A stretch of DNA of 32,000 nt, from assembly GCF_051097895.1 (NCBI RefSeq), contig NZ_CP142525.1:150001-182000 (forward strand). The letters are read 5' to 3'. The notes beneath the pieces are model-generated. The model was not told where the DNA came from. It ran no database searches and saw only the letters and a list, made by a program, of their open reading frames with translations. The stretch is from Psychrobacter sp. HD31 (lineage in GTDB: Bacteria; Pseudomonadota; Gammaproteobacteria; Pseudomonadales; Moraxellaceae). A program made the translations under genes and the position numbers. Below, one piece after another: positions 2 to 19,399 of this stretch (position 1 is the stretch's first letter; each line of letters starts with the position of its first letter).

Positions 2-1363
2 AATGGCAATGTTGTGTTTGATTCTGGTAATTTTTTAGAACATTTGGCTGTTAGCTTAGGTCAATATCCAGAAAAACGATCTGCCAATAAAGGTAATGAG
101 CCAGAAAATGCCGAATTTGGTAAATATGGGAGTGATAACCTGTTATTTATCGCATCAGAGCGGGCGAATATGGTAACCGTTTATGATGTTAGCAACCCTG
201 CCAAACCAAAGTTTAGACAGGCGTTACCAGCGGGCGTTGGTCCTGAAGGTATTTTAGCAATACCAAACCGTAACTTGCTTATTGCCGCAAGTGAAGTGGA
301 TAACCGTGGTGACAAAATGCGTTCTGTATTAAATATTTATCAGTATCAAAACGTCGCTAAACCGACTTATCCTTCACTCCGTTCTGCTACCGCAAATGGT
401 GTGCCAATTGCGTGGAATGCAATGTCTGGTCTTGCAGTTAATGGTACGACTTTATATGCGGTTAATGACAGCTTTAACGGTAAAAACAGTATCTTTAGCA
501 TCAATACTAATGGCTACCCAGCCATGATTAACAAAGAGATGAAAATTAAAGATAGCAACGGTGTGTTGGCGGCATTACCAGTTAAACAAGTAGCAAAAGC
601 TGGTGCTAAAAGTGCTGAACGCAATACGGTATTTGATAATCAAGATTTAGCGAAGCTCATCAATGCGGATAAGACGGTAAATATTGATCCAGAGGGTATA
701 GCGGTGGCAAGTGATGGTGGTTTTTGGATTGCGTCAGAAGGCTCTGGCACATTGACAGAAGCTAAAAAACGTCCACTTAATAGTGTCAACATGGTATTAA
801 AAACAGATGAGATGGGTAACATTACTCAGGTATTTACATTACCAGAGGCGGTCAATGAAAAACAGATTCGTTTTGGTTTTGAAGGTGTTGCCGAGCAAGA
901 TGGCAAGGTTTATATTGCCTTCCAACGTGCTTGGGCCGGTGAAAAACATCCTCGTATTGCTATTTTAGACCCAAAAAATGGAGAATGGATGTTTGTCCAT
1001 TATCCATTAGATACAGCTGAATCACAACGAGGTGGTTGGGTTGGTTTGTCTGATATTGCCCCACTTGGTAATGGCAAATTTGCCGTGTTAGAGCGTGATA
1101 ACCAAGGTAACTATGATGCGGCAGTTAAGCGTATTTACCAAATTGATTTAAGTAATGTACAAAAAGAGAGCCTTGTTAAAAAAACCCTGGTACGTGATTT
1201 AATTAAAAAAGGTGATTTAACAACGGGTGGTAATCTGGCATTTGAAAAAGTTGAAGGACTGGCGGTTGATAGCGCAGGTAATGCTTGGATTATCAATGAT
1301 AACGATGGTGTTGATGACAACAGTGGTGAAACCATGCTTAAAAATTTAGGTCAGCTATTTTAA
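2..1363 (+). CDS. Phytase-like (esterase-like activity of phytase family) beta-propeller protein, 5'-truncated by the window edge
   Basis: The frame is open to the window start, so the GTG at 14 is probably internal. Repeated motifs IDPEGIAVASDGGFWIASEG and VEGLAVDSAGNAWIINDNDG are typical of phytase-like repeats. A hairpin terminator follows. Confidence 0.6.
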   Translation, partial: NGNVVFDSGNFLEHLAVSLGQYPEKRSANKGNEPENAEFGKYGSDNLLFIASERANMVTVYDVSNPAKPKFRQALPAGVGPEGILAIPNRNLLIAASEVDNRGDKMRSVLNIYQYQNVAKPTYPSLRSATANGVPIAWNAMSGLAVNGTTLYAVNDSFNGKNSIFSINTNGYPAMINKEMKIKDSNGVLAALPVKQVAKAGAKSAERNTVFDNQDLAKLINADKTVNIDPEGIAVASDGGFWIASEGSGTLTEAKKRPLNSVNMVLKTDEMGNITQVFTLPEAVNEKQIRFGFEGVAEQDGKVYIAFQRAWAGEKHPRIAILDPKNGEWMFVHYPLDTAESQRGGWVGLSDIAPLGNGKFAVLERDNQGNYDAAVKRIYQIDLSNVQKESLVKKTLVRDLIKKGDLTTGGNLAFEKVEGLAVDSAGNAWIINDNDGVDDNSGETMLKNLGQLF

Positions 1364-1396
1364 GCTCAAAACAGGAATATCATAAGGTTTAACTAC

Positions 1397-1428
1397 AAAA
1401 CGCCAGCGTAATGTTGGCGTTTTTTTTA
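1397..1428 (+). terminator. Rho-independent terminator of the phytase-like gene
   Basis: AAAACGCCA-9 nt loop-TGGCGTTTT followed by a T-run. Confidence 0.75.
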
Positions 1429-1529
1429 TTAACTATATTATAATCATCTAACATATTAAAAAATAACAGTGCTTTGGATACCTCTGTCATCAAATAAAAG
1501 TATTCAAATAAAAATTGGAAACTAACTCA

Positions 1530-3653: not shown

Positions 3654-3735
3654 GGTGTAAGGCTATTTAAGCCGTAAGGTTATAACGTAACGGAGTAAAT
3701 AAACTAAGGGATTCAATAGAATTTAAAATGATGGT

Positions 3736-4893
3736 TTAAGTTAACTCGCTAAATTTTTCAGGGATTTCTTTGCCTTCATATAATAGCTGATAGACTTGTA
3801 AGGTTTCATTAATGGTTTGTTTTAGTTCAAACTTATGGGTCATGGCAGGGCGTTGCACAATGTCTAACTGAGTTTTTACAGCTTTGCTAACCGCTTGCGC
3901 ATCTGTTTTCTTTACCATCCCTTGAGGGTAAGTTGCGCGTAATATTTCTGCATGAGCAGCTTTATCCCAACCCACAACGGGAGTACCAAGGTGTATTGCC
4001 TGCAAAACGGGGATACCAATGGATTCTGGTTGATTTGCTAAGGCTAATACAAGATTAGATCCTGATAGCCACTCTTTCATATCGTTGCGCTTGCTACCTA
4101 CATAAGTAATGCGCTTATCCAAATCTAAAGCAAATGCCCGTTGACGAAACTCTTCATAAGTAACATTATCAGGGTGTTCTTTATCATCATCCATGATAAT
4201 GACATGAATGTTTGGAAAATGTACCTGTAAATTACCTAAGATATCGAGCAACCATTCTTGACCATATTCTTTATCAATAATACTGGGGAACAGTAACCAT
4301 TTTTTATGTTCAAGTTCAGGAAACTCAGCAAAAATATGACGTAGCCAGTAAACTGATGGGTTATAGCGGTAGGGGAAGTGACGTACATCAACCCCACGAT
4401 AAATGCGTACAATGGGTTTGGTGTAATGGTAACTTTGTTTTAGGTTGTCTTTTAAATATTGAGTAACACTATCGGATACAGAGATAACCACATCCGAATA
4501 AAACAAAGCTTTTGAGTAGTTGTTGAGCGTATAAAAACCATAGACCGTAGAAACAATCTTTGGTGGCTTTTTAAGCCTTGCGCCTTTTAATGCCCAGTGC
4601 AGAATCCAAGCAGGGGTACGAGAGTGAACATGGATCACATCAGGTTTGTTTTTTTCTATTAGTCGACGTAACGCAAAAGCCTGAGTAATCGACCACCATG
4701 ATTTTTTCTTCATTTTTATTTGGTGGTAGATATTGCCATCACGCTCAAGGCGTTTTACCAATTTGTCATCTTTATCTGCACTTGCCACCACAATGGATGT
4801 ATGACCATTTTTTACAAGCCTATGTCCTAGATGATAAATACCCCGTTCGGATTCATCATGCTTTAAAGACGAGAGCAGACGCATAACAATCAT
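3736..4893 (-). CDS. Glycosyltransferase family 4 (group 1)
   Basis: 385-aa ORF with a GT-B fold pattern. The C-terminal half (ESIGIPVLQAIHLGTPVVG) resembles the EX7E region of GT4 enzymes. Confidence 0.6.
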   Translation of the reverse strand: MIVMRLLSSLKHDESERGIYHLGHRLVKNGHTSIVVASADKDDKLVKRLERDGNIYHQIKMKKKSWWSITQAFALRRLIEKNKPDVIHVHSRTPAWILHWALKGARLKKPPKIVSTVYGFYTLNNYSKALFYSDVVISVSDSVTQYLKDNLKQSYHYTKPIVRIYRGVDVRHFPYRYNPSVYWLRHIFAEFPELEHKKWLLFPSIIDKEYGQEWLLDILGNLQVHFPNIHVIIMDDDKEHPDNVTYEEFRQRAFALDLDKRITYVGSKRNDMKEWLSGSNLVLALANQPESIGIPVLQAIHLGTPVVGWDKAAHAEILRATYPQGMVKKTDAQAVSKAVKTQLDIVQRPAMTHKFELKQTINETLQVYQLLYEGKEIPEKFSELT

Positions 4894-6675: not shown

Positions 6676-6834
6676 GTTATGTTAATCCTTAATTATTATT
6701 TATTAATAGATAATAACATAACTGATATTTGTGATTAATATTAACTTTTGGTGTGTGTTGTTTATTTGCCAAATAAAAAAGCAGGTTTTGACAATGTGTA
6801 GGATTTTGTGAATGCAATGTATCGAGATGAATAA

Positions 6835-6987
6835 AGCCAGTTAGAAGCTGTATTAACACTAATGAACGCATGGGGGTTACGTACCGCTATGCGGCAACAT
6901 AATTGGAAAGTCATAGCTAAAACTTGGAACGGAAGTAAATACTGGGTACACGGCTATCATAATAAGCTAAAACACGCATACTTGTGA
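6835..6987 (+). pseudogene. C-terminal remnant of an N-acetylmuramidase (DUF3380-like) gene
   Basis: A short open frame ends GLRTAMRQHNWKVIAKTWNGSKYWVHGYHNKLKHAYL*. It matches the conserved C-terminal pattern W..FA..YNG..Y..N.Y..KL..AY of that family. An in-frame stop at 6832-6834 leaves no upstream catalytic part. Confidence 0.4.
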
Positions 6988-7007
6988 TACAGTTAACAAT
7001 GAACAAC

Positions 7008-7033
7008 AAAAAACCCCGCTCGATTGAGTGGGG
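7008..7033 (-). terminator. Hairpin plus U-tract, probably the original ssrA terminator displaced by the island insertion
   Basis: CCCCGCTC-GATT-GAGTGGGG stem with an A6 run on the plus strand, which is U6 after the stem on the minus strand. The minus-strand RNA has one A-C mismatch. Confidence 0.4.
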
Positions 7034-7097
7034 TATCATGTCAAAAACTTGTCAAAAATATATCTAAAATTACAAGTTATTGATTTAAAACATAAAA

Positions 7098-7120
7098 TAT
7101 GGTGGAGGTGGCGGGAGTTG
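7098..7120. repeat. int-distal att repeat (duplicate of the ssrA 3' end)
   Basis: TATGGTGGAGGTGGCGGGAGTTG is identical to 19041-19063. Confidence 0.9.
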
Positions 7121-7171
7121 TTTTTATCTATACAGCCCTTTATTTAAAAGGGATTAAGGTTTTCGTATTTT

Positions 7172-7194
7172 AAATATACCGTAAAATATACCGT
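7172..7194 (+). promoter_or_regulatory. Tandem TATACCGT motifs, candidate integrase arm-type sites (int-distal arm)
   Basis: AAATATACCGTAAAATATACCGT is identical to 18906-18928 and lies 52 bp inside the att repeat. Confidence 0.5.
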
Positions 7195-7701
7195 AATTTT
7201 ACAAAGTGTATTGCCTATTTGGGTATACCCCCTGCCGACTTTTGACCACATAAAAAAACGCTGGGGCTCGATGGTCTTTTAGACTAAGCCTTCCCACTTT
7301 GTACTCCCCCCTAGGTAGCTAAAAGCTCTGCCTATATAATTTGCAAATGGCTTTTCTCTTTTGTCCTTGTCATGTTTATTGCTCATACTCTTATACAGTC
7401 TACTACCGCCTTTTTGTCTATTCCATAAATTCATAAGACAAAAAAGGGAAATTTTTTTTCAAAATAGAAATTTTTTTATGAATGAGAGAGGGTGTGGTGT
7501 CCGCTTGGTATACCTTCCCAAACTTTTTGATACCCCCCTCCTTTGGGTAGGATGTTGGCATTACTATTATTTACTCTGACCTAAATAGCTTTTGGTTGAT
7601 TGCATTTATTGATTAATTAATGTCACATATGAGGCTTGCTATATTTATTGTTGGTTGACTCTTGAGGTTATATACTTATCATAGAAACGCCTTCAATTGC
7701 T

Positions 7702-7831
7702 TGCACACGCACGCACCCCCAAAACACGCTATTATGCTATTAATTCCTTTCTATGCTATGCGTACCAAGGGATACGAGGGATTGAGCTGTCTGCTATTGC
7801 GTGCTATTAGGTGCTATTCATGCTATTAATT
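7702..7831 (+). repeat. Iteron-bearing ~130-bp repeat, copy A (upstream of umuD)
   Basis: Long identical blocks are shared with 9703-9839 and, in inverted orientation, 17101-17220. It holds six GCTATT units, four of them at 9-10 bp spacing. Confidence 0.85.
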
Positions 7832-7843
7832 AGTGTTCTATCG

Positions 7844-7872
7844 TTGGGTGATTGTTCAATTCCAGTTATAAT
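7844..7872 (+). promoter_or_regulatory. Candidate sigma70 promoter for umuDC
   Basis: TTGGGT-17 nt-TATAAT, 31 bp upstream of the umuD ATG. Confidence 0.35.
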
Positions 7873-7902
7873 CACTTATCCTCTTATTAGGTTGACACAG
7901 TA

Positions 7903-8328
7903 ATGACTATCAAAATACTTGGTAAACTTTCGGCAAAAACATATCAGCCCTTACCTTTCTTTATTGAAGCTGTACCGGCTGGCTTTCCATCACCAGCAGA
8001 GGGCTACGCTGACGCAAGTATTGATTTAAATGAACTTTGTATAACTCACCCTAGTGCAACCTTTTTAGTACGTTCTAGTGGGCACTCAATGATTAACAAA
8101 GGTATCTTTGATAATGACTTATTGGTTGTAGATAGAAGTATAGAAGCTGTATCAGGAGATATTGTTGTGTGCATGGTAAATGGGGAGTTTACTGTTAAGG
8201 AGCTAGTACTAGAGCAAAAACCTATGCTAGTTGCCCATAACCCTGAATACCAAAATATAGAGCTTAACAGTGATATGGACTTTGAAGTCTTTGGTGTTGT
8301 AACAAATGTGATACGTAGTTTTAAATAA
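7903..8328 (+). CDS. umuD: UmuD-like S24 peptidase (translesion polymerase V accessory subunit)
   Basis: 141 aa with the LexA/UmuD fold pattern. The serine motif is SGHSM and a downstream Lys lies in FTVKEL. It sits immediately upstream of umuC. Confidence 0.8.
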   Translation: MTIKILGKLSAKTYQPLPFFIEAVPAGFPSPAEGYADASIDLNELCITHPSATFLVRSSGHSMINKGIFDNDLLVVDRSIEAVSGDIVVCMVNGEFTVKELVLEQKPMLVAHNPEYQNIELNSDMDFEVFGVVTNVIRSFK

Positions 8329-8417
8329 GACAACTATTGTTGCCTAACATGGTTCCGTTTTATTCTCTGAAAAATAATCATGATATAGTAATCTCACTTA
8401 ATAAATGAGTGATACCC

Positions 8418-9698
8418 ATGTATGCCTTAATTGATTGCAACAGCTTCTATGCCAGTTGTGAAAAACTATTCAGACCTGACCTTAAATATAAACCCGTTGT
8501 TGTGTTATCTAACAATGATGGTTGTGTGGTTGCACGCTCTAAAGAAGCTAAAGCCTTGGGTATTAAAATGGGCGTACCATACTTTAAGGTAGAGGGCTTC
8601 TGTAAAGCAAATGATGTAAGTGTGTTTAGTTCTAACTATACCCTGTATTCCGATTTGTCTAACCGTGTTATGTGTACGCTTGAAAGCCTATGCCCTACGG
8701 TAGAGATATACTCTATTGATGAAGCATTTTTATACCTTGATGACTACCCAACAGCCATGCAAGATTTAGAAGCATACGGGCAAATGATTAAACAAACGGT
8801 ATATAAACATACTGGCATACCTGTGGGTGTTGGTATAGGAAAAACCAAAACATTGGCTAAATTGGCAAACTATGCTGCCAAAAAACACCCCGCTACCGAT
8901 GGCGTTTGTGTATTAGATAATAGGCGTTGGATTAACCGCTTAATGCAGATAACGCCCGTTGGCGAAGTTTGGGGCGTGGGTAGAAGATATGCCAAAACAC
9001 TTAACGACATGGGTATAAACACAGTAGCAGATTTGGCGAATATGCCGTCAGGGTTGGTTAGGCAAAAGTATGGGGTGGTATTAGAACGCACACAACGAGA
9101 ATTAAACGGTCAACCCTGCCTAGATATTGAGCCAGTACAGTTAAAAAAACAGATTGTATCCTCTCGCTCATTTTCTAAACGCATTACCAATAAGCAAGAT
9201 TTAACAGAGGCGTTATGCGGTCACACAGCTAAGGCGATGGCTAAGCTAAGGGAGCAAGATAGTTTATGTACAACCATAAGCGTATTTGCTCGTAATAGTC
9301 CGTTTAGTAAGCATGAAAAGTTTACCCCTGTATCAGGGCAATATACTTTTAATGAGGCGACAAATAACACTACAGAGATGATAAAAGCGGTTAGGCTTGT
9401 TATAGATAATATGTATCAGGACAAGGTTAATTATGCAAAGGCTGGCGTTATGCTATCAGGTATTGTACAAGAAGATGAGGTGCAACCCGATTTGTTTAGT
9501 TTTGCAGGTTTAAACCCAATCAAAAAAGCAAAAGATGATGCCATTATGCAGTTAATGGATAAACTGAATACAAATAACAGCCATCAATTATTTATTGCCA
9601 GTGAGGGTGTAAGGAATAAACAAGAATGGTTAATGAATAGGCAGTATTTAAGCCCGTGTTATACAACTAGGGTTAGTGATTTGGTTTGTGTTAACTGA
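8418..9698 (+). CDS. umuC: UmuC-like Y-family DNA polymerase (Pol V catalytic subunit)
   Basis: The N-terminus [15 protein letters not shown] and SIDEAFL are classic Y-family motifs. The ATG at 8418 is preferred over the GTG at 8409. Confidence 0.88.
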
Positions 9699-9702
9699 TA
9701 AT

Positions 9703-9839
9703 CCATTTGCTTGTATACGAACGTACCCAAAACACGCTATTATGCTATTAATTCCTTTCTATTCTATGCGTACCAAGGGACACAGAGGATTTAATAAAAT
9801 GCTATTGCGTGCTATTAGGTGCTATTTATGCTATTAATT
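9703..9839 (+). repeat. Iteron-bearing repeat, copy B (downstream of umuC)
   Basis: Direct repeat of copy A. It shares AAAACACGCTATTATGCTATTAATTCCTTTCTA, CTATGCGTACCAAGGGA and GCTATTGCGTGCTATTAGGTGCTATT.ATGCTATTAATT. Confidence 0.85.
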
Positions 9840-10091
9840 TACTAATTTTAATATAACCTGATGAATTTAAAAGATAATTTAGAGCCTAAATAATGGGTGT
9901 AGGGGTTGTAGGTATTTTGCCTATAACTGTAGGATGATTGCTCGCCTGATTAGGCTTGCTGATAGGGTGATAATGATATTGTGAAGTCCAAATTTGGGCT
10001 TTGCTTAAAAATCAATAATTTAAAAAAATAAAGGGATACGCTTGGAACGCACCCCTTTATCAACCACATTTAATACTTATTAAGATTATAT

Positions 10092-12308
10092 TTATTTGTC
10101 AGTAAATACTTTTGGGTTGAGTTCTATACTGGCTTTGTTGTCGTGTTTAATCTCTCGTATGTGGTTATTATCTTTTAATATCTTGATAAGTGGGTCTAGC
10201 TTTTTCTTTTTGCGTAAGCTTGTAGGTGTTATGCCTTGCTGTAGTTTTACCCTAGGAACAATAGTTATATTATTCTCACGGCAATAGTTAATAAGCCAGT
10301 TTTCTACTCTATCTGCTTGTACTAGTTTTTCATCAAAATCCGTATAGCCTCCATAGCGTTCCCACTCCATGAGGCTATGCTCTGCCAATTTAATGCCACT
10401 GACCATTAGTTCGGGTGTTATTGCCTCTGACCCTTCAAAAAATGCCAACACGGTTGCAATGCGTATTGCGTTTGGTAAGGCTCTACCTGCAAATGACTTT
10501 AGGTGTACAAACTTGCCAGCACGTCCAACCTTTTTTTCAATATCATTATAAAAGTTCATTGCTAGGGTGTCGGCTTCATCGGTAAGGGGTATAACAGGGC
10601 GTTCAATGCGTCCGTCTATACTTTGAGGTGGTATTTTATCGAGTAAAAACTGGCAACGCCTCCAGTATTCAACTAAGCGTTTATCTTTGTAAAACTCTCT
10701 ATTATTTTTCCATGTATCTGCGGTATGGGTACGCTTGCCCGCCAAGGTGTCGGGGGCAGTGAATAAAAACCTACACAAAAAGCCTTGCTCCATCATCATT
10801 TTGTCATTTAGCACTTTTTCTAAGGCTACCTTTTGCCCTAGCATGTTAATACACAAACGCACGTCATAAGCCACGCCTGACCCATTCGCATTTGAACGTG
10901 AGCGGTGACGTGCTACTGGCTCACCATCCCATGTTTCTGTACATATGGATAGGGTAGACCCTTGATTATCTGCACTAAATGAGTATGACCCAAATACTTT
11001 GCTTGCTTCACCGCCAGTGATATAAGCACTTTTAAGGTGTTCATGAATATAAGAGCCCACAAGGCTGTCTATTGTAAAATCGCTATATATGGCTTTTGGG
11101 TTTAATGGTTTGGGGTATTTTTGTTCGTATTCCTCTTTCGCTTTATTACCTTTGCATTGTGCTAGGGCTTTGTTATGCTCTTCTAATCTGTCTAGGTATT
11201 GGTTGTATTCTTTTTTGTCATGCTCAACTATCCGTAAATTAGCTTTATTGATACAAGAGGATTTTCTATCTCCACTATCTCCCTCAATCATAATAAACAA
11301 GCTACAAGGCTCGCCATATTGATGTTGGAATGAGCGGGCATTTACATGGTTTTGGGCTAAATAAGCCATCGCCCCAAGTACCGTATGACCAGCCATAGCT
11401 ATGCTGGCTTGTGAGTGCTGTGCTATAGCACTAACCGCATTTTTAGCCAGTGGTGGAAAAGCGTCTAATGGGTATCGGTTGGGTTCGCCCCGTTCATTTA
11501 TTAATAAAGTAAAAGGCTCGCTTTTATTAATTTCATCCCAAGATAGTTGTTTTTTTTCATCATCAGATAGGGTAGTAGATGTATTGGCTATATTCATACG
11601 GTGGATGTCTGCATTATCCATTAATCGTATAACCTCTGTATTATCTATCTCCCAGTCTATGGCAAATTCTAGGGCATATATAGCAACATTGGTATTGGTT
11701 AGTAGGGTCTTGTAGTCGCTAAGCTCATGTATGCCTATAGGGGCTATTAAACGCCCTTTGGCTTTAAATTGCCATTGCTTGGCTACATAGGCAAGGTTTG
11801 CAGGTGTAAAGCACACCATGATGGTTGCTGTACTATCTAGTTTGTAAAGATTTAGCCCCGCCTGTAGGTCTGCTACCAGGTAAACTTTATTATCCGTGGT
11901 AAAGGAAGAGCCGATAATAAAAGCACCTTGCGGATGTATTATTGGTTCAAAAATGGTTTTACCTTGAATACCTTTATCATCAATGGGTGGAATCATGGCG
12001 GTGTTAGTAGGCTGTAAATCACTATTTACCAAAGGTAATAATAAATGATTAATGCAATTTATATTGCCATTGTCTCCTTTAGTAAAGCCTTCTTTAGTGA
12101 GCAGTATATTACCGCTAATAATTGCACTTGCAGGTAGGTGTGCTAAAGGCTCATGGTATTGGCTTATTACATCATTGGTAGCACGGTTATTCTCAAATAA
12201 TCTTATGAGTTGTTGTGCAGGATTTTGATTTAATGATGGTTCATTTGCTGGCGGTTCATTGCCACCTTTGGTTGTACTTTGCTTAGTTTTATCGGTTTGG
12301 GTATTCAC
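10092..12308 (-). CDS. DUF3987 (YfjI-like) primase/helicase-like replication protein
   Basis: 738 aa. The central block YPLDAFPPLAKNAVSAIAQHSQASIAMAGHTVLGAMAYLAQ matches the characteristic DUF3987 N-terminal motif. A P-loop-like GDSGDRKS follows. The gene sits downstream of alpA, as in CP4-57. Confidence 0.65.
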   Translation of the reverse strand: MNTQTDKTKQSTTKGGNEPPANEPSLNQNPAQQLIRLFENNRATNDVISQYHEPLAHLPASAIISGNILLTKEGFTKGDNGNINCINHLLLPLVNSDLQPTNTAMIPPIDDKGIQGKTIFEPIIHPQGAFIIGSSFTTDNKVYLVADLQAGLNLYKLDSTATIMVCFTPANLAYVAKQWQFKAKGRLIAPIGIHELSDYKTLLTNTNVAIYALEFAIDWEIDNTEVIRLMDNADIHRMNIANTSTTLSDDEKKQLSWDEINKSEPFTLLINERGEPNRYPLDAFPPLAKNAVSAIAQHSQASIAMAGHTVLGAMAYLAQNHVNARSFQHQYGEPCSLFIMIEGDSGDRKSSCINKANLRIVEHDKKEYNQYLDRLEEHNKALAQCKGNKAKEEYEQKYPKPLNPKAIYSDFTIDSLVGSYIHEHLKSAYITGGEASKVFGSYSFSADNQGSTLSICTETWDGEPVARHRSRSNANGSGVAYDVRLCINMLGQKVALEKVLNDKMMMEQGFLCRFLFTAPDTLAGKRTHTADTWKNNREFYKDKRLVEYWRRCQFLLDKIPPQSIDGRIERPVIPLTDEADTLAMNFYNDIEKKVGRAGKFVHLKSFAGRALPNAIRIATVLAFFEGSEAITPELMVSGIKLAEHSLMEWERYGGYTDFDEKLVQADRVENWLINYCRENNITIVPRVKLQQGITPTSLRKKKKLDPLIKILKDNNHIREIKHDNKASIELNPKVFTDK

Positions 12309-12357
12309 TGATTACCTCTGTTTTATCTATTTCATTATATGAATGGGTGGTATTTGC

Positions 12358-12789
12358 TTAACGTCTGCCATAGCGTGATAGTCGTCTTTTTTGGTAGTGA
12401 CGTTTGCGTTTTTTGTAGCGGTTTCGTCTTTGTTCGGCTGTTGTGTTTAGCGTGCTGTGACTTAACCTGTACTGGTCGCATTGCCTAGAAGGGTGTAGAT
12501 GTTCAAAGCCTGTAATGCAACCTATGTGGATAGTGCATTGCTCTACTTGCCAGCCATATTGTGGTTTGTCTGCTTGTAGAGCTAGGCAAGTTTGCTTTGC
12601 TTGTTCTAGGGTCAGGGGTATGCCAGTAACCCCAAAGGGGGCTACTGGGTTGCCTGTTTGATTGACGGCATAGTATTGGATATAGTCGCCATCTAATACA
12701 CACTCAAAGTCGCTTAGGTCGTTAAGGCTGGTTATGCTTTTGGGCAGGTCAATACTCGATATAGTGGTACTGGTTGTATTTGTATTCAC
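12358..12789 (-). CDS. Hypothetical protein with an extremely basic C-terminal tail
   Basis: 143-aa ORF whose start overlaps the stop of the upstream gene by 4 nt. The tail reads RRNRYKKRKRHYQKRRLSRYGRR. Confidence 0.6.
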   Translation of the reverse strand: MNTNTTSTTISSIDLPKSITSLNDLSDFECVLDGDYIQYYAVNQTGNPVAPFGVTGIPLTLEQAKQTCLALQADKPQYGWQVEQCTIHIGCITGFEHLHPSRQCDQYRLSHSTLNTTAEQRRNRYKKRKRHYQKRRLSRYGRR

Positions 12790-13658
12790 AATATACCCCC
12801 AACACGTCCGTTAGTAGTTTTTGCCATTTCATCATTTAGTCTATTGATGGTATGACGTATAAAATCGGCATTGGTTTCACTGCTTAGTTGTGCTAGTCGT
12901 GCAAGGGCTTGGATTTGGCTTATACTATCTAGTGCTTTGATTGTTGCAAAAAGGCTGGTTAGGTTGTTTAAGGCTTCATAAACGCATAATAAATCATCTA
13001 TATTGCTTCGTGCCTCACCAACTGGTAAAGAGATGGTTTCATTTTGGATATTTGCATTACCTTGTGGTATATCAGTTACGTTATTAGAAGGGTTATTACT
13101 GGCTGGTACTATTGCGTCACTGGGAGGTCTAATCACCTTATAACCATCATATTCTGCCTGTAACTCTTGCATAGTGACAATATTGCTTAGGATATTATCC
13201 ATTGCTTCTAGTTTCGCTTTACTGTTACGGGTGTCTAGCCCTGCTTTTTGGTTTAATTCAACTTCTGCATTTAGTTGATTGAGTGCATTATGAGCATATT
13301 TGCACCAGTCGTTAAGGGTAGGTGTTTGATGATTAAATGCCTTTGTTGGCTCACTTGCCAGCTTGGCGGGCATGTGCGTTTGCAACTGAATACGCATTAG
13401 GTCGATACTTTTTATTACTTCCTTACTGTCTGTTGTAAAATCCATGGTTAGGATTTCATCAATAGTTTGTAGGTGTCTGATTGTTTGTGTATCGTGCGAG
13501 TGGGTTTGAGTATAAGCCTTGGTAGCCGTTTTTAGAGCGTCTAATAGCTCTATTTGCTCTACCTTGCAGGTAATGCTGTCTTGACTGTCGCCAAGTAGCT
13601 GTAACAGCTCATCACGGTTAATTTGTGTGGTTATTGGGGTTTGGTTTGATGTGGTCAT
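12786..13658 (-). CDS. Hypothetical protein, apparently alpha-helical
   Basis: 290-aa ORF with 4-nt start/stop overlaps on both sides, consistent with translational coupling. No family was recognised. Confidence 0.6.
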   Translation of the reverse strand: MTTSNQTPITTQINRDELLQLLGDSQDSITCKVEQIELLDALKTATKAYTQTHSHDTQTIRHLQTIDEILTMDFTTDSKEVIKSIDLMRIQLQTHMPAKLASEPTKAFNHQTPTLNDWCKYAHNALNQLNAEVELNQKAGLDTRNSKAKLEAMDNILSNIVTMQELQAEYDGYKVIRPPSDAIVPASNNPSNNVTDIPQGNANIQNETISLPVGEARSNIDDLLCVYEALNNLTSLFATIKALDSISQIQALARLAQLSSETNADFIRHTINRLNDEMAKTTNGRVGGIL

Positions 13659-14074
13659 GATTGACCTCCTAATAGATTTTGAGTTAATGCCACGCTATGA
13701 AAATTCATAGGGTAACGGGTCTTACTCTCGGTACTATTAGTAACCGCCCTGCATATTCGCCTAATGGCTTTTGTATTTTGCAACGTCAACCCGTTATAAG
13801 GTGGTAAATTGATTACCATAGATACAACGGTTTTACCCTGTTGGGTAAATTGCTTTGTACTTTTATACTGGTTTGGTTGAGAGCCGTGCCAGTTTTTTTG
13901 CACAAAAAAAGCCAATGGTTCACGGATTGGCTGTCCGCTAATAGTTTTAGAGAGGTCTCCAGTATAGGCGAATGCACAACTAAAAGGCAAGCACAATAAT
14001 ATAAATATGATTATTGCCATGCAGGTATCTTTTATTCTTTTAGCTAGTTTATGTTTGGGTTGTTTGGTGGTCAT
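13655..14074 (-). CDS. Hypothetical small secreted or membrane-anchored protein
   Basis: 139 aa. A basic N-terminus (KHKLAKRIK) is followed by a hydrophobic segment AIIIFILLCLPFSCAFA. It overlaps both neighbours by 4 nt. Confidence 0.55.
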   Translation of the reverse strand: MTTKQPKHKLAKRIKDTCMAIIIFILLCLPFSCAFAYTGDLSKTISGQPIREPLAFFVQKNWHGSQPNQYKSTKQFTQQGKTVVSMVINLPPYNGLTLQNTKAIRRICRAVTNSTESKTRYPMNFHSVALTQNLLGGQS

Positions 14075-15171
14075 TTGTTTGCTCCGTTATTAATTGAGTC
14101 ACTTATAGACGCAAGTAACAATCCAGCGGGGTTGTAATGAGTTAAACCATGGGTCATGGCATGGTCAAAGATAAGCCCTGTCTCTCGGATTATCGCCATA
14201 GCTTGGTCGCTGTCTGCTTTCTCTTGAACATCAAGCATGATGGCTTCAATATTGCCGTGTGATATATCCCTAATATCCATAGAACCAATCAGCGGTTTAA
14301 CAAAATGAATATAGGCAGCATACAAACGGTCGTTTGTGCTTTTATCTAGTTGAGCTTTATGCTCTGCAAACCACCCTTGTGCAATGTCATCAAATAGATT
14401 GGAGCGGTGCATGGTTGTGGTTTTTACTACTGGGGAGCTTGGATTTAAGTGTATAAAGCCGTTTATCTCATCGCTAAAGGTTTGTAGCCTTGTTTGTAGA
14501 ATTTGATTAATTACGGCTAAATGGTGGGCGTTATCGTCTTTGCTCATCATGATAAAACCAATATCATCACGGTAAAGGTTGTGGTTATGGCGTGTGGTTG
14601 TATCTTCAATGTTGTTTAAGGGGCTACTCCCAAAACTTGCACAGTCGGCAATAAAGCGGTGTCCTTTAAGTGTAACCATTGTGAGGAGATACTCGCCTCG
14701 TTTTGACGGGTAAACGTCATTTATATTGAGGGGGTCAGTAGGCTTGATTTGCTCTATGTCGTGAACATAGGCAAAGTTGCTGGCACGTGTACTCCACTCG
14801 TCATTATGTGACTTGTATTTAGTAGAGTAGTCGGGGTGGTTGCGTATGTCATCATTGGTTAAACCATTGTTAAGGGCATGAGATAACTCCTCATAGTCCA
14901 TATATTGGCGGTTAACAATTAATATACTATCTACGGTATCATTGATACATTCTAGCCAGCCATTGGCTATGTGAATGGTCATATCCGCTACATAATCCCA
15001 ATCGGTACAATCAAAGCCAACATTGATATGGTTGCCTTTTTTACTGGTAGCAATAAGCACATACTTGTGTTGCTTTGCCTGCTCTAGGTTAGTTACCCAA
15101 GGTTTACCGTTAGCAGTGGCGTTGTCATTAAATGGGTCGGGGTGTACGGTATGAATTGGTTGTTTAGTCAT
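14071..15171 (-). CDS. Hypothetical protein: unknown N-terminal region fused to an integrase core-binding (SAM-like) domain, with no catalytic domain
   Basis: 366 aa. Residues ~260-350 align at roughly 45-50 percent identity (hand count) with residues ~101-190 of the island integrase. The shared blocks are FD.IAQ.W.AE.K..L.K.T.DR.Y.AY...VKP.IG.M.I.DI and IRE.G.IF.HA...GL...NPA. Confidence 0.6.
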   Translation of the reverse strand: MTKQPIHTVHPDPFNDNATANGKPWVTNLEQAKQHKYVLIATSKKGNHINVGFDCTDWDYVADMTIHIANGWLECINDTVDSILIVNRQYMDYEELSHALNNGLTNDDIRNHPDYSTKYKSHNDEWSTRASNFAYVHDIEQIKPTDPLNINDVYPSKRGEYLLTMVTLKGHRFIADCASFGSSPLNNIEDTTTRHNHNLYRDDIGFIMMSKDDNAHHLAVINQILQTRLQTFSDEINGFIHLNPSSPVVKTTTMHRSNLFDDIAQGWFAEHKAQLDKSTNDRLYAAYIHFVKPLIGSMDIRDISHGNIEAIMLDVQEKADSDQAMAIIRETGLIFDHAMTHGLTHYNPAGLLLASISDSINNGANK

Positions 15172-15173
15172 GA

Positions 15174-15464
15174 TTAAGCTACCCCGTCATCGTTATAGTT
15201 TTCGTCATTTGAGGCTTGGGCTTTGAACCAAGCGTGCACGTCCTCATTTGCCCATGCTGTTACTGTTGGGCTTAATTTATGAGGTTTAGGGAATAAGCCC
15301 TCTTTAGTCCATTTCCAAAGCGTGCTTTCGCCAATGGGTAAATAGGGTAGTAGCTGTTTTGCTCGACTAAAGCCATTAACGGGTAAGGCTGGGGGCTGGG
15401 TGTTGCTAGTTTGTCTATCTAATTCGCTTTTATTTGCGTTTTGAGAGGTGTTTGCGGTAGTCAT
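15174..15464 (-). CDS. alpA: AlpA-family helix-turn-helix regulator (excision/transcription activator)
   Basis: LPIGESTLWKWTKEGLFPKPHKLSPTVTAWANEDVHAWF matches the Phage_AlpA pattern. The start at M18 (15464) is preferred because AAGGAA lies upstream. The longest ORF would start at 15515. Confidence 0.8.
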   Translation of the reverse strand: MTTANTSQNANKSELDRQTSNTQPPALPVNGFSRAKQLLPYLPIGESTLWKWTKEGLFPKPHKLSPTVTAWANEDVHAWFKAQASNDENYNDDGVA

Positions 15465-15578
15465 AGTACAATTCCTTATCTTTAAGTTGTAAATGCTTAA
15501 ATACACTATTGTCATCTATCACCGTGGTAATGAATGACGCTAGATGTTTGGAATTGTAGAAGTTGGAGCGTTTCAGTG

Positions 15579-15590
15579 TTCTAATTAGAA
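15579..15590. promoter_or_regulatory. Perfect palindrome TTCTAATTAGAA upstream of alpA (candidate operator)
   Basis: 12-bp perfect palindrome. Its 10-bp core TCTAATTAGA recurs at 15652-15661. Confidence 0.35.
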
Positions 15591-15640
15591 TAATTAGTTT
15601 TATTTAGAATGTTAACTTATTGTTTTTTAATATTTTACAT

Positions 15641-15672
15641 AAGAATACCGCTCTAATTAGAACGGTATTCTT
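15641..15672 (-). terminator. 10-bp perfect hairpin at the end of the 285-aa cargo gene
   Basis: AAGAATACCG-12 nt loop-CGGTATTCTT. The loop contains the stop codon and the TCTAATTAGA palindrome. There is no clean U-tract on the minus strand. Confidence 0.4.
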
Positions 15673-16510
15673 TTGCTTCATCAATAACTTTTTTAAAGGT
15701 ATCTTTACTTATAAAGTCTATATCATGAGTATCTGCATGAATTTTTAATTTTTGGTACAAGGTGTAAGGATGTTTTGTATCAAAGCCTCCTTCGTCTAGT
15801 AATAAGTGAATTAGTTTTAAATATGATGATTTGCTTTTATGGTTAAGTTTATCTGATGGTTTTATTAGCTCTTTTGACTTTTCTTTAGTTGAGGTTGATT
15901 GAAGCTTTGGCTGGCATATCACTTGTACTTGGTGATTTGGGATGAAGATAGTATCTTTGGTTAGTTTCGCCCCTTTGATAATATCTTTTGGTAATTCGGA
16001 TGGTTTTGTTTTATTAGGTAGCATAAATGATAAGGTATATTCAAAAGGCATAAAAACAGTTGAAGTTTTTTTAGCTTCTTCATTCATCAATACTGCATAT
16101 CGGCAATACACCTCATTGGTTATGCCCATAAGTAAATTTTTAATAGTTTCGCTATATCCATGCCAGCCAGTAGCAGAAAAATACCCACCAATAGGTTTTA
16201 ACTCTGTAGTTGTTGTATTCCATTTTTCCAAGTATTTATTTATGTCATCATGAGAATAAAAGTCGTCAGTAACTAAAAAACCATAACTCGCTAAATTAAA
16301 GCAAATGTCAATCTGATTATTAAAATATAGGTTGTATAAATCTATCATCTGAAAGCTAGGATTAGACAATCTTAATTTATGTAATGCAGTCTCTATTGAA
16401 ATATAATCACTCATAAATACACCCATGCACCCACAAAGTAAAATAAGAGCTATGGCGGGCAAGGTTAGGGTGCATAATGCCCTTGCGTTCGGGTAATTAC
16501 TCCTAGCCAT
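15653..16510 (-). CDS. Hypothetical cargo protein, possibly a signal-anchored or lipoprotein
   Basis: 285-aa ORF in the AT-rich slot. The N-terminus MARSNYPNARALCTLTLPAIALILLCGC has a positive n-region, a hydrophobic core and a lipobox-like LCGC. Alternative starts are at 16426 and 16414. No family was recognised. Confidence 0.55.
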   Translation of the reverse strand: MARSNYPNARALCTLTLPAIALILLCGCMGVFMSDYISIETALHKLRLSNPSFQMIDLYNLYFNNQIDICFNLASYGFLVTDDFYSHDDINKYLEKWNTTTTELKPIGGYFSATGWHGYSETIKNLLMGITNEVYCRYAVLMNEEAKKTSTVFMPFEYTLSFMLPNKTKPSELPKDIIKGAKLTKDTIFIPNHQVQVICQPKLQSTSTKEKSKELIKPSDKLNHKSKSSYLKLIHLLLDEGGFDTKHPYTLYQKLKIHADTHDIDFISKDTFKKVIDEAKEYRSN

Positions 16511-16536
16511 AGCAAACTGGTTAACCCATTGGAGGG

Positions 16537-16806
16537 TTAAAATAGTTTTTCTAATGCCTCATGTTTTAAAGTTATTAAAGCGGTCTTGTCATCTTCAAAT
16601 CTTATAAAAACCGTTACGTCATCAACATTGCCTGTTAAGCTGTATCCTGCTAGACCACCGAGTAAAGCACCAACGCCACCAGTTAGCATACCTGCTGTAA
16701 GTGCAAACATGCTACCTTGGAATACACTGTAGCCATGCTTTTTGGCTTGGTGGTGGTCGATTATGTCAATGCTGTATATCTCGTTAAGTTTACGACCTTT
16801 TGCCAC
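16537..16806 (-). CDS. Small glycine-zipper membrane protein, probably the -1 frame continuation of ORF 16761-16943
   Basis: 89-aa ORF with GMLTGGVGALLGGLAGYS. It has a GTG start with no SD. It is reachable from the upstream ORF by a -1 shift at A_AAA_AAC. Confidence 0.5.
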   Translation of the reverse strand: MAKGRKLNEIYSIDIIDHHQAKKHGYSVFQGSMFALTAGMLTGGVGALLGGLAGYSLTGNVDDVTVFIRFEDDKTALITLKHEALEKLF

Positions 16807-16943
16807 TGGTTTTTTTCTTTAAAAAAACGTCCTTTTTCTTCCATCTCATAAAAATAAATAAAACTGCCACTAATCCAACCATCTTTGATTAAGTAGTGGT
16901 TACTGTCATGCGTTGTAAAATTGTGTATTCCTAAAAAAGCCAT
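16761..16943 (-). CDS. Upstream 60-aa ORF (zero frame) of the split cargo gene
   Basis: ATG at 16943 is preceded by GAGGG 7 nt upstream. It overlaps the 89-aa ORF by 46 nt in a different frame. Confidence 0.45.
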   Translation of the reverse strand: MAFLGIHNFTTHDSNHYLIKDGWISGSFIYFYEMEEKGRFFKEKNQWQKVVNLTRYTALT

Positions 16944-17100
16944 CTTATACCCTCGTGTTGGTATAGCACAGTTAATTTATGGTCATTTGACTACACAGGT
17001 TTTTAATTCCGCGTTTCAAACGCGAAACTAAAAAAACATCATGCTATTTTTAAACCTTTAAGTTTTTATTTAAAATCAATGATTTAGTTTGGCTTTAAAA

Positions 17101-17220
17101 CAATAATAGCATTAATAGCACGCACTAGCATTTTATTAAATCCTCTGTATCCCTTGGTACGCATAGCATAGAAAGGAATTAATAGCATAATAGCGTGTTT
17201 CGGGGGTGCGTGCGTGTGCA
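17101..17220 (-). repeat. Iteron-bearing repeat, copy C (inverted, mosaic of A and B)
   Basis: The reverse complement begins TGCACACGCACGCACCCCC as in A and continues AGAGGATTTAATAAAATGCTA as in B. It has one GCTATT unit fewer. Confidence 0.85.
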
Positions 17221-17635
17221 TATCTGCATAGATAAATTACGCCTAAAATGGGGTTAGGTTTGCTCGGATTTCAAATCTGACCAAAAACTAACCACGCATG
17301 ACCTGCCAATATTGCCATTTAAAAAATCTTGTTATGATAATATATATAATAAAAACAATAACTTAATAAATAAAAAAGAGAAAAAACAAAAAATCACGCC
17401 CGATGGGTAGAAAAACGGGCAGGGCTGGCAAGTGAGCCAACACGGTGTAACCGTGTGTGTAAAACATTGGCTATGGTGTGGGTTGGTAAGATGTAAAGAC
17501 TAATAAGGATATATGTAATATATAATATATATATATTTATATATCTATTAATATTCTTAATCTATTTCTTACTTTCCCCTCTATACCAGTGTATCCTTTT
17601 TTATTTTATTAAATGGTTATCATTACTATTTAATA

Positions 17636-18880
17636 TTATTGGTTAATAGACTTTCCTGTATCAGATTTAAAATCAACGTGTATCACATTATCCAATGTGC
17701 CAAGCTTTGCATTATCAATAATTTTAGCCCAATCATTCATCATCTTGGTTCTATACTTAATATACATAGCACCATCATAAGCTTTGCTTACCTTGTTATC
17801 TTTATCGTGGGCTAATTGTAGCTCAATAGCTTCGTGCATATATTCAAGTTCATGTAGGGTTGTGCTGGCAAGACCTCTAAAGCCGTGTGTGGTCATCTTC
17901 CCTTTGTAACCCATTTTGTATAGAGCATTTATAAAAGCATGTGAACTTAAAGGCTGGCGTTTGCTGGTGTTATAAAATACATATTTTTCACTAAACCCCA
18001 ATCCTTTGATTTGTTGTAGTAGCTCAATAACAGGTGGTGCTAACGGTACCAGGTGTTTACGTTTTACTTTCATTTTTTCGGCTGATAAACGTATTATTTT
18101 ATCTTTAAAATCAATATCTGCCCATTCAAGCATTCTTACCTCATTGGTTCTCAAAAAGGTGTAGCAAGTAAACCACAAGCCTAGTTTAACCAATACATGC
18201 CCTTTATAGTTGTCAATATCTTGTAATAGCTGGGGTAGTTGTCGTATCGTAATACGGTTGTGGTGCTTTGTTATACTCGGCTGTATGGCTTCTGTGAGGT
18301 TTATAGCTGGGTTGTGAGTAGCTAAACCTTGCCTAATAGCATGCTTAAATATTTGCCCAACCTCACGTATGGTACGTTTTGACATCTCTATTGCTCCCCG
18401 TTTTTCAATGGCTTTTCCAATAGCTAAAATATCAGGAGGGGCTATATCTGTAATTATCATATGTCCTATAGCGGGTTTTACATCCCTTTCATAAGCAGAA
18501 TAATTACGGTCATATGTTTTCTTAGCAAGGTAAGTTTTACGCTCTGCATACCACTCTTGTGCGATGTTATCAAACAATAGAGAGCCATCTACTTTGGCTT
18601 TTTGCTCTTTTTTGTGTTGCTTAGGGTCTGTGCCTTGGGCAATCATTTGGCGGACGTGTTGGTGTTTTTGGCGGGCTTGTGCCAATGACAGTATAGGATA
18701 CTTACCAAGAGTAAGGCTTTGGCGTTTACCGTTAAATTTATAGTCTGATACCCAAACCTTATTACCAGTATGACGTACCCAAAGACGTAAGCCGTCTCCA
18801 TCACTGTATTTGTCAGGGCGGGCAGGGGTACATTTATCGGTTGGCTTCAACCGTTTAATGGCGGTATCTGTTAGAGGCAT
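17636..18880 (-). CDS. int: P4/CP4-57-type tyrosine integrase (arm-binding DUF4102 N-terminus, SAM-like core-binding domain, catalytic domain)
   Basis: 414 aa. The N-terminus LTDTAIKRLKP...DGDGLRLWV is typical of P4-type integrases. Catalytic-domain motifs LRTNEV and HGFRGLAST are present. It lies adjacent to ssrA. Confidence 0.9.
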   Translation of the reverse strand: MPLTDTAIKRLKPTDKCTPARPDKYSDGDGLRLWVRHTGNKVWVSDYKFNGKRQSLTLGKYPILSLAQARQKHQHVRQMIAQGTDPKQHKKEQKAKVDGSLLFDNIAQEWYAERKTYLAKKTYDRNYSAYERDVKPAIGHMIITDIAPPDILAIGKAIEKRGAIEMSKRTIREVGQIFKHAIRQGLATHNPAINLTEAIQPSITKHHNRITIRQLPQLLQDIDNYKGHVLVKLGLWFTCYTFLRTNEVRMLEWADIDFKDKIIRLSAEKMKVKRKHLVPLAPPVIELLQQIKGLGFSEKYVFYNTSKRQPLSSHAFINALYKMGYKGKMTTHGFRGLASTTLHELEYMHEAIELQLAHDKDNKVSKAYDGAMYIKYRTKMMNDWAKIIDNAKLGTLDNVIHVDFKSDTGKSINQ

Positions 18881-18905
18881 TGACGGTATATTTCCTTAAT
18901 TAAAT

Positions 18906-18928
18906 AAATATACCGTAAAATATACCGT
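18906..18928 (+). promoter_or_regulatory. Tandem TATACCGT motifs, candidate integrase arm-type sites (int-proximal arm)
   Basis: Identical 23-mer to 7172-7194. An inverted ACGGTATA lies at 18883-18890 next to the int start codon. Confidence 0.5.
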
Positions 18929-19040
18929 TATTTTAAATAGATTACAAGAGACTATACTAGACTATATAATAGTCTAAATCCCCTGTAAGCCTTTAAAAAT
19001 ATAGCCCAGTCGGATTATATCAGACTGGGCTATATTGGTG

Positions 19041-19063
19041 TATGGTGGAGGTGGCGGGAGTTG
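19041..19063. repeat. int-proximal att repeat (functional 3' end of ssrA plus 2 nt)
   Basis: Identical to 7098-7120. Confidence 0.9.
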
Positions 19064-19399
19064 AACCCGCGTCCGCCAGCACTACGCTCATGAATCTACA
19101 TGTTTAGGGTCTGTCTATAAATTTAATCCGTTCCGAACCGACAGTCAGGTAAGATTGGACGAGTCTTTAAATTTAGTCTCATTAGTCAAGACACCTAACA
19201 AGACGGACCTATGTGCGTTCGCTTCGGGGTGATCAACCTAACCATAGGTAGTTAGTGACGACCCAAGCAGCCCTTAGGCTGCTAGAGCGTAAGTTTCGTC
19301 GTTTGCGACTATTTTAAAATATACTTGATTTACGAGAGGGTATAACTCTCGACATGCATCATTGAGTTTCATCACCAGCGTCGAAGCCAGAACACCCCC
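19043..19399 (-). ncRNA. ssrA: tmRNA (transfer-messenger RNA)
   Basis: The 5' end GGGGGTGTTCTGGCTTCGAC pairs with the 3' end CACCTCC-A-CCA, including a G3-U wobble. The T-arm is GGGTTCAACTCCC. The tag reading frame GCAAACGACGAAACTTACGCTCTAGCAGCCTAA (19274-19306) encodes ANDETYALAA. Confidence 0.95.

Follow-up and report, generated by a model that had tools for sequence, protein, structure and literature searches.

An ssrA-integrated island of Psychrobacter sp. HD31 with a predicted antisense-RNA control region ahead of its replication operon

What kind of element occupies the 3′ end of the transfer-messenger RNA (tmRNA) gene, ssrA, in Psychrobacter sp. HD31, and how might its replication genes be controlled? 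The element lies at positions 7098-19063 of a 32,000-nt stretch of HD31 DNA (hereafter, the window). An earlier, sequence-only reading of these 11.9 kb took them for a satellite-like island that had entered ssrA by site-specific recombination, and that could represent an undescribed satellite or integrative lineage. We found that the island is integrated into ssrA. Our best overall explanation, to which we assign a probability of about 0.7, is that it is a self-replicating element with antisense-RNA control of its replication operon. Read from the integrase gene (int), the minus strand carries p89, p285, alpA, p366, the open reading frame (ORF) p139, p290, p143, a DUF3987 gene and a strong terminator, whilst umuD and umuC are located on the plus strand.

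Integration of the island into ssrA

The sequence-only reading reported an exact 23-bp duplication in the same orientation, and a repeat search that tolerated mismatches bore this out. The 23-mer, TATGGTGGAGGTGGCGGGAGTTG, has exactly two copies in the window (7098-7120 and 19041-19063), and no third copy is present there even when up to three mismatches are allowed (chance expectation, 0). Since both ARAGORN and Rfam (RF00023, 195.8 bits) place the tmRNA, with the tag ANDETYALAA, at 19043-19399 on the minus strand, the right copy consists of the last 21 nt of ssrA plus 2 nt, exactly as had been claimed. The right copy is the present 3′ end of the functional ssrA gene, the target of the integration, and the left copy is the displaced original 3′ end.

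Empty sites were reached through the Fhs protein encoded in the window. It belongs to a protein cluster of three members, the other two of which are encoded by Logan metagenome contigs (L092 and L093) that are conspecific with HD31 (flank identity 98.0-98.5%). In both contigs, the 3′ end of ssrA with a single copy of the 23-mer runs directly into the region upstream of fhs; bases 1-153 of L093 equal window positions 19193-19041 at 100% identity, and its bases 184-3966 match positions 6782-3000. The boundary at 7097/7098 is correct, because the ~20 nt past the repeat in these empty sites are homologous to window positions 7075-7097. The same two contigs argue against the alternative that the 23-mer is part of a larger chromosomal duplication. 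The empty site that had been predicted, with one repeat copy and the junction at 7097/7098, was recovered, but the left flank also holds a second, separate indel of ~290 nt. This strain-specific DNA (6783-7075) is situated outside the island, between fhs and the left repeat copy, and is missing from L092 and L093. It takes the place of the 3′ half of the hairpin that natively terminates ssrA, has a terminator of its own (7017-7045, minus strand), and may be the scar of an earlier element. A scan of RplI-anchored contigs provided no empty site for HD31, since the synteny of fhs and ssrA is not kept in other species.

The gene next to ssrA (17636-18880, minus strand) encodes a tyrosine integrase of the P4 type with Arm-DNA-bind_3, Phage_int_M and Phage_integrase domains (Pfam; PHROG 1). 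A direct-repeat search identified an arm-type repeat between int and ssrA (18905-18940) and a matching one just inside the left end (7171-7206); both are made of a 12-nt tandem, AAATATACCGTA, present twice and situated ~75 nt inside either end of the island (18906-18928 and 7172-7196). In related islands the repeats are placed likewise but differ in sequence (ATACCAACAATA), which is the behaviour expected of arm-type integrase sites. The island also supplies a hairpin and T-run directly past the rebuilt ssrA (18998-19036, minus strand), found by an inverted-repeat search, which presumably terminates that gene. In Psychrobacter frigidicola (locus L025), a 7.8-kb island is flanked by 17-nt copies of the ssrA end on both sides, and the native terminator is retained past the distal copy. 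Together, the empty sites, the P4-type integrase beside ssrA, the arm-type repeats and the att duplication of P. frigidicola support site-specific integration into the 3′ end of ssrA with the gene rebuilt, and we regard the integration as established. Pfam likewise agreed with the earlier statement that alpA and a DUF3987 gene come after the integrase gene; alpA (15174-15515, minus strand) encodes an excisionase-regulator of the AlpA/Vis type (PF05930; PHROG 66 and 2790).

The region ahead of the replication operon

Besides int, alpA and the DUF3987 gene, the only ORF of the island with a match in related islands is p139 (VH441_00620; 13655-14074, minus strand). ORF calls over this region make up 533 protein clusters, and all of the named ones are from Psychrobacter. 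A conserved core protein is, however, ruled out by the codon-position test: divergence over the three positions is flat (0.127/0.170/0.113 in 58 unique sequences), compared to 0.254/0.165/0.567 for int, which is typical of a protein-coding gene. The nucleotide identity of the region amounts to 80-86% among relatives, where the identity of the DUF3987 protein is 31%, and the AlphaFold model made from a 41-sequence alignment was useless (pLDDT of 42, no secondary structure). Based on the nucleotide conservation, the flat codon-position divergence, the failure of AlphaFold and a match to the Rfam family RF02221, p139 is most likely not a protein but an RNA control region. When the conserved 390 nt were considered as a possible mimic of a cos site or an oriT, collections of phages and plasmids yielded no match to them. 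The sequence-only reading listed five or six genes that it could not recognise; p89, p285, p290 and p143 are indeed without a family, whereas p139 most likely represents the antisense-RNA control region.

The match to RF02221 (sRNA-Xcc1) is full-length and covers 13706-13795 on the minus strand (36.6 bits, E 1e-4 to 2e-3). The consensus fold of the family, a closing stem with two internal hairpins, is present, and its helices are kept with covariation in 58 sequences. The predicted structured RNA (13695-13817, minus strand) comprises this core, a 5′ hairpin (13803-13817) and a 3′ hairpin (13695-13710), and the HD31 RNA alone folds into the same helices (z -2.4). We counted covariation on a manually specified structure in the 58-sequence alignment, with 500 shuffles and slid partners as controls. 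Pairing was retained in 97.9% of the cells, 13 pairs were altered on both sides, and the covariation score was 0.227, as against 0.102 in the shuffles (none of the 500 reached 0.227) and no more than 0.041 with slid partners. Several helices contain G-U pairs, and they do so on the RNA (minus) strand only. The module has a sigma-70-type promoter, TTGCCT-18-TATACT (13961-13990, minus strand), whose equivalent, TTGCAA-17-TACTAT, is kept in 52 relatives.

Applied to the 58 sequences, RNAalifold returned local hairpins as well as a long-range helix between the second hairpin's variable loop and the variable bases just 5′ of the Shine-Dalgarno sequence of the next gene. In HD31, alignment and string matching identify this antisense loop as CTAATAG (13734-13740). 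Its predicted downstream target, CTATTAG (13665-13675, minus strand; seqC-like), overlaps the Shine-Dalgarno sequence AGGAGG of p290, which starts at 13658. A predicted upstream target, ACTATTAG (seqA-like), is located at 13938-13945 on the minus strand, and folding places a terminator-like hairpin, GCCAAT..ATTGGC with T7, 3′ of it (13904-13931, minus strand). Loops and targets were compared by string matching in 72 unique instances, and the loops fell into 13 types. An exact reverse complement of the loop was present beside the Shine-Dalgarno sequence in 64 of 67 instances and ~214 nt upstream in 55 of 62, compared to 0.055 matches in a permutation control. The more divergent loci L171 and L172 have two further loop types, which pair through G-U wobbles. 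As far as comparison of these sequences can tell, the RNA is structured and its complementarity to the targets covaries, with loop and targets changing together through at least 15 specificity types.

In seven of the 62 relatives, with examples at L125, L147, L152 and L154, the upstream site (GAACACG, for instance) does not fit the loop of the RNA, which suggests recombinant control regions or a third partner. A 5-nt GAGAG/CUCUC pairing of the RNA with conserved CCUCUCAA boxes was also considered, and was dropped as too short.

The first genes of the replication operon, whose start is the predicted target of the RNA, are the orphans p290 and p143 (12358-13658, minus strand). The operon ends with the DUF3987 gene (10092-12308, minus strand), and a promoter and terminator scan placed a strong terminator after it (10027-10061, minus strand). 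The 738-residue DUF3987 protein matches its Pfam family at 5e-49 as well as helicase and primase families of PHROGs, and DUF3987 has been described as a predicted helicase of mobile-element replication (PMC5862659). Its AlphaFold model is confident only from residue 280 on, and the best 50 listed fold matches in the PDB are structures of MCM-family helicases; searches of the PDB by single sequence or profile gave nothing useful, and the sequence search used on IMG/VR retrieved no relatives. We therefore consider the protein to be a putative MCM-like replicative helicase.

A repeat search further identified three iteron blocks, copies of a ~130-nt repeat that is found inside the island only. 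Each block holds six GCTATT motifs, four of which are spaced ~10 nt apart (8-10 nt in the second copy). Copies 1 (7702-7835) and 2 (9704-9839, 250 nt past the helicase gene) are direct repeats on the plus strand that bracket umuDC, so that recombination between them would remove this cargo precisely. Copy 3 is inverted (17105-17220, minus strand) and is situated in the spacer between int and p89, near an AT-rich tract (17509-17554). By analogy, the blocks may be origin-type binding sites, and we take their separated arrangement to recall that of P4 ori and crr. The heptamer of the antisense target, CTATTAG, also occurs in two of the iteron blocks, on the opposite strand (7804-7810 and 9812-9818, plus strand). 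The window contains 10 matches to it where 5.3 are expected, and its occurrence inside the iterons is probably due to chance.

The island family and its cargo

Loci of the island family were gathered around rplI, and from IMG/VR, metagenomes and assemblies. Several Psychrobacter species have ssrA-adjacent islands with int (62-67% identity), alpA and DUF3987, and other Psychrobacter species have an ssrA without any island. DUF3987 is situated no more than 3.5 kb downstream of the RNA in all 30 loci with enough sequence, and alpA no more than 2.5 kb upstream of it in 35 of 45 cases. The gene behind the RNA varies from island to island, and can be p290-like, a gene for a 199-aa protein, or DUF3987 itself. 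Likewise, varying cargo (HicAB, RelA_SpoT, RelE/MqsA and HigBA-like pairs, for example) occupies two slots, one bounded by int and alpA and the other behind the helicase gene. At L087 (8542-11239), the island integrase stands in tandem with a fragment of the ssrA 3′ end and a prophage that has an integrase of its own. At L084 (9750-10000), the island follows a tRNA 3′ fragment behind prophage early genes, and some members of the family therefore use a tRNA site. We located no description of a Psychrobacter island family in the literature, and the HD31 island apparently belongs to a widespread, undescribed family in this genus that shares a common backbone. The earlier suggestion of an undescribed satellite or integrative lineage holds to this extent, but the term “satellite-like” refers to gene content and not to a demonstrated lifestyle.

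Three further loci have features of their own. In Psychrobacter saeujeotis (L011), two ssrA 3′-end fragments (10601-10621 and 12073-12093) are located upstream of a complete ssrA (15159-15517), which is the wrong side for simple 3′-end integration. The cargo slot between int and alpA of L088 contains a group I intron (4445-4771; RF00028, 77.9 bits). In L094 (1-6470), genes with Phage_gp49_66 and LPD1 domains are situated just upstream of the island integrase, and may belong to another tandem element.

In the HD31 island, the first accessory slot (15653-16806, minus strand) holds the low-G+C orphans p89 (16537-16806) and p285 (15653-16510), neither of which has a family match in Pfam, PHROGs, NCBIfam or PADLOC; p285 is also without a match in phage genomes. 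The G+C content of the p285 region is 31.5%, compared to ~40% in the remainder of the island, which is consistent with recently acquired accessory DNA. The same four libraries gave no family match for p290 or p143. Among 1.8e9 representative proteins p290 had five matches, none of them informative, and it had no match in phage genomes or the PDB; the only PADLOC match obtained at all, that of p290 to Cas5f (E 6e-4), was judged to be weak and due to chance. Positional equivalents of p290/p143 in L094 and L172 share a C-terminal motif with them. The product of p366 (14071-15171, minus strand) combines an orphan N-terminal part of ~250 residues with an integrase core-binding domain (Phage_int_M, residues 260-350; Pfam), and has no catalytic domain. 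Its last 110 residues are 45% identical to residues 100-209 of the island's own integrase, and integrase core-binding domains in the PDB match as well. The only match to p366 in 5.8e9 proteins was p366 itself, although a relative with 25% identity was found in L172. The protein could compete for the core sites, or could be a relic of recombination.

The second cargo slot is occupied by umuD (7903-8328) and umuC (8409-9698), which lie on the plus strand and encode the error-prone polymerase V (Pfam, NCBIfam). Their nearest plasmid copies, at 68-70% nucleotide identity, are those of Moraxella osloensis. The umuDC cargo, the three iteron blocks and the ~290 nt of the left flank are additions to the sequence-only reading. 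All island proteins with look-up results are singletons confined to HD31. In agreement with the earlier reading, no capsid, terminase, tail or lysis gene was found among the island proteins with Pfam, PHROGs, NCBIfam and PADLOC. Similarly, PADLOC, together with the other three libraries, gave no match to a defence gene. There was no match to a relaxase or type IV secretion system family in Pfam or NCBIfam, nor was an oriT recognised.

Known systems, a proposed mechanism and its rivals

In P4, processing of the replication operon's leader releases the CI RNA, which base-pairs with seqA on its upstream side and with seqC on its downstream side; this leads to premature termination and switches the replication genes off (PMC4825925). 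In P1 and P7, the c4 RNA is cut out by RNase P, its loops pair with a target that includes the ribosome-binding site of icd, and differences of a few nucleotides fix the immunity type (PMC5320573). The HD31 island is like P4 in that it has a P4-type integrase at a tRNA-like gene, an AlpA/Vis-type gene upstream, a predicted small RNA in the leader of the replication operon with a complementary site on either side, and a putative helicase gene at the end of that operon. It differs from P4 in that Rfam places its RNA outside the C4/CI family (the nearest family being sRNA-Xcc1), its putative helicase is assigned to DUF3987, where P4 has the alpha type, and its host is Psychrobacter and not one of the Enterobacterales. 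None of the island proteins submitted to Pfam, PHROGs and NCBIfam matched the Sid, Delta or Psu families, although the orphans could hide analogues. As with c4, the RNA is encoded upstream of its own target on what would be the same transcript, and its loop is predicted to pair with the ribosome-binding region of the next gene. Unlike c4, which has two loops (a′ and b′), it has one loop and two targets, its scaffold differs, and it would control replication genes instead of an antirepressor. What the island RNA has in common with the C4/CI RNAs is a loop that is complementary to sites on its own transcript, one of them at the ribosome-binding site of the gene that follows, and that covaries with these sites in specificity. 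The HD31 island can be summed up as a core for regulation and replication that resembles the one of P4 but has been assembled from different parts.

The island RNA resembles sRNA-Xcc1 in its overall fold (closing stem, two hairpins and ACCC tail) and in its location on mobile elements, ahead of a protein gene that has the same orientation. In contrast to sRNA-Xcc1, it has additional 5′ and 3′ hairpins, and its score of 36.6 compares with a gathering cut-off of 53. In the literature, sRNA-Xcc1 is a virulence-associated, trans-acting small RNA; it precedes symE in integron cassettes and an ORF6N gene in APSE, and in Xylella it is a neighbour of C4 and isrK. The accessible literature on sRNA-Xcc1 assigns no flanking antisense targets to it.

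Since the layout of the island mirrors that of P4 CI and P1/P7 c4, we propose that the p290-p143-DUF3987 operon is repressed in the integrated state. The element entered the 3′ end of ssrA by tyrosine-integrase recombination across the 23-bp core, supplying a new ssrA end and terminator, and after excision it probably replicates itself. Its backbone runs from int through an accessory slot, alpA, the RNA control region, the replication operon ending with DUF3987 and the iterons (the likely origin) to a second cargo slot, here filled by umuDC. The control region would be transcribed from its own promoter to yield a structured, sRNA-Xcc1-related RNA of ~90-120 nt, and the 7-8-nt loop of one of its hairpins would pair with two sites on the same transcript: the upstream site just past the transcription start and ahead of the terminator-like hairpin, and the downstream site over the Shine-Dalgarno sequence of p290, the gene with which the replication operon opens. 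As the RNA builds up in the integrated state, it would block translation and trigger premature termination, and the operon would stay off. Variants of loop and target would make related islands mutually non-immune and divide them into heteroimmunity groups. Repression, processing of the RNA and its action in trans are steps that we infer, and so would be any dependence upon a helper phage.

Several points weigh against this mechanism. The RNA and its processing are predicted from sequence, and the pairing could act in cis only. The pairing of loop and target is just 7-9 nt long, the upstream site differs from the loop of its own RNA in 7 of 62 relatives, and the upstream hairpin is weak in the HD31 copy (z -0.08). 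The RF02221 match falls below the gathering cut-off, which was also reached by none of seven scanned relatives, and the C4 and isrK models of Rfam were not listed at E values of up to 10 within 13500-14200. With respect to the replication genes, the TM-scores of the DUF3987 model to MCM structures are low (0.26-0.33), its N-terminal 270 residues are poorly modelled, and the model revealed no primase domain. Finally, the iteron blocks are unique to the HD31 island, so that they can be read as a putative origin by analogy only.

We also considered that the RNA region is a cis-acting leader that masks the ribosome-binding site within one molecule, or that it restrains, in the manner of an antitoxin, a toxic protein encoded downstream. 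Only ~60 nt separate the loop from the downstream target, and a single-sequence fold of 13655-13745 does form the helix between them; moreover, sRNA-Xcc1 is found upstream of symE in Xanthomonas and, elsewhere, of an ORF6N gene, as an antitoxin-like RNA might be. However, masking in cis hardly explains a second covarying target ~200 nt upstream, past a terminator-like hairpin, and the change of regulated gene from island to island speaks against any single toxin. We consider both versions to be quite unlikely. Much less probable still is a decayed prophage remnant of the kind of the cryptic CP4-57. The one point that we counted in its favour is the order of int, alpA and DUF3987 at ssrA, which we take to resemble that of CP4-57. 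Library searches of the island proteins (Pfam, PHROGs and NCBIfam) revealed no degraded virion genes, p290 and p285 are without matches in phage genomes, and loci of 7.8-12 kb that share this compact backbone number in the dozens. In addition, the genes are intact and overlapping, the integrase is under coding constraint and the RNA-target pairs are maintained, and we reject this explanation.

The remaining two explanations concern how the island spreads. One of them extends the self-replicating, RNA-controlled element into a true phage satellite of the PICMI, P4 or PICI kind, in which a helper phage would induce alpA, whereupon the island would excise, replicate from its iterons and be packaged in helper capsids, the RNA providing a lysogeny-type immunity. 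As described, the PICMI core of Vibrionaceae consists of int, AlpA and a DUF3987/DUF5906 primase, and the elements integrate next to fis (PMC10803314). By this account, int, alpA and DUF3987 give the HD31 island three of the four mandatory PICMI genes, with few others and no capsid-remodelling genes, whereas the island lacks the iolg gene that overlaps int and is larger, and its RNA module is not among the PICMI features in the accessible part of that description. It is also inserted in ssrA rather than beside fis, and no Fis-type domain was among the Pfam matches. SatelliteFinder defines the core of P4-like satellites by int, alpA, alpha, epsilon, sid, delta and psu, and the tyrosine integrase and AlpA of this set are present in the island. 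The PICI-like combination of int, alpA and a primase-replicase is “Type C”, which by itself is not accepted as a satellite by the SatelliteFinder authors. The packaging and capsid-morphogenesis genes of PICI types A and B (terS, ppi and rpp) are absent according to Pfam, PHROGs and NCBIfam, and we recognised no capsid-redirecting or helper-derepressing gene and identified no cos or pac site. A size of 11.9 kb, the absence of transfer genes and an order of regulatory and replication genes as in the P4 left operon would all suit a satellite, as would cargo of the toxin-antitoxin and RelA_SpoT type in relatives. The tandem arrangement with prophages at the same att site (L087 and L084) is, however, expected for any two elements with a common att site, and the relatives inside “viral” contigs of IMG/VR may reflect adjacent prophages. 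We regard a satellite lifestyle as possible, but rather doubtful. The other explanation is an ordinary island for cargo or defence, or else an integrative mobilisable element, whose spread would depend on conjugative mobilisation, on generalised transduction or on transduction by a jumbo phage, with no dedicated exploitation of a helper. Compared by description only, the tmRNA islands of E. coli (CP4-57) and Pseudomonas (I23, I44 and I55) share with the HD31 island the target gene, a direct repeat of the ssrA 3′ end, an ssrA-adjacent integrase, alpA and the absence of transfer genes, and similar islands with a tmRNA-targeting int and alpA are moved by a jumbo phage. Variable cargo slots and the lack of satellite-specific genes fit this explanation too. 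Those islands are 20-55 kb in size and have other core genes (RadC, YqaJ and others), and the Pseudomonas ones carry alpA at the far end, unlike the HD31 island. No relaxase or oriT was recognised, and the conserved helicase operon, the iterons and the immunity-like RNA point to an autonomous replication phase that a passive island would not need. On balance, we find passive spread unlikely.

The self-replicating, ssrA-integrated element with an antisense-RNA switch therefore remains our preferred explanation, and what began as a routine island call becomes a regulatory model that can be put to the test. An ORF that is listed in databases as 533 “hypothetical protein” clusters is most likely a non-coding control region, and an sRNA-Xcc1-like family without an established mechanism gains concrete targets and a predicted function. 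More broadly, and only tentatively, we suggest that Psychrobacter harbours a large, undescribed family of P4-like self-replicating islands, possibly satellites, that are silenced by an sRNA-Xcc1-type RNA with two flanking targets, and whose at least 15 interchangeable specificities correspond to heteroimmunity groups. By extension, sRNA-Xcc1 elsewhere (symE integron cassettes, APSE phages and Xylella islands) might then consist of c4/CI-type repressors of the next gene, and not of virulence small RNAs. The umuDC cargo indicates that islands of this kind can carry error-prone repair between strains, and the many loop and target specificities would provide a natural setting in which to study how competing elements become incompatible through RNA. 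For Psychrobacter itself, a cold-adapted genus apparently without described satellites or island families, the HD31 island and its relatives define a widespread family of mobile elements.

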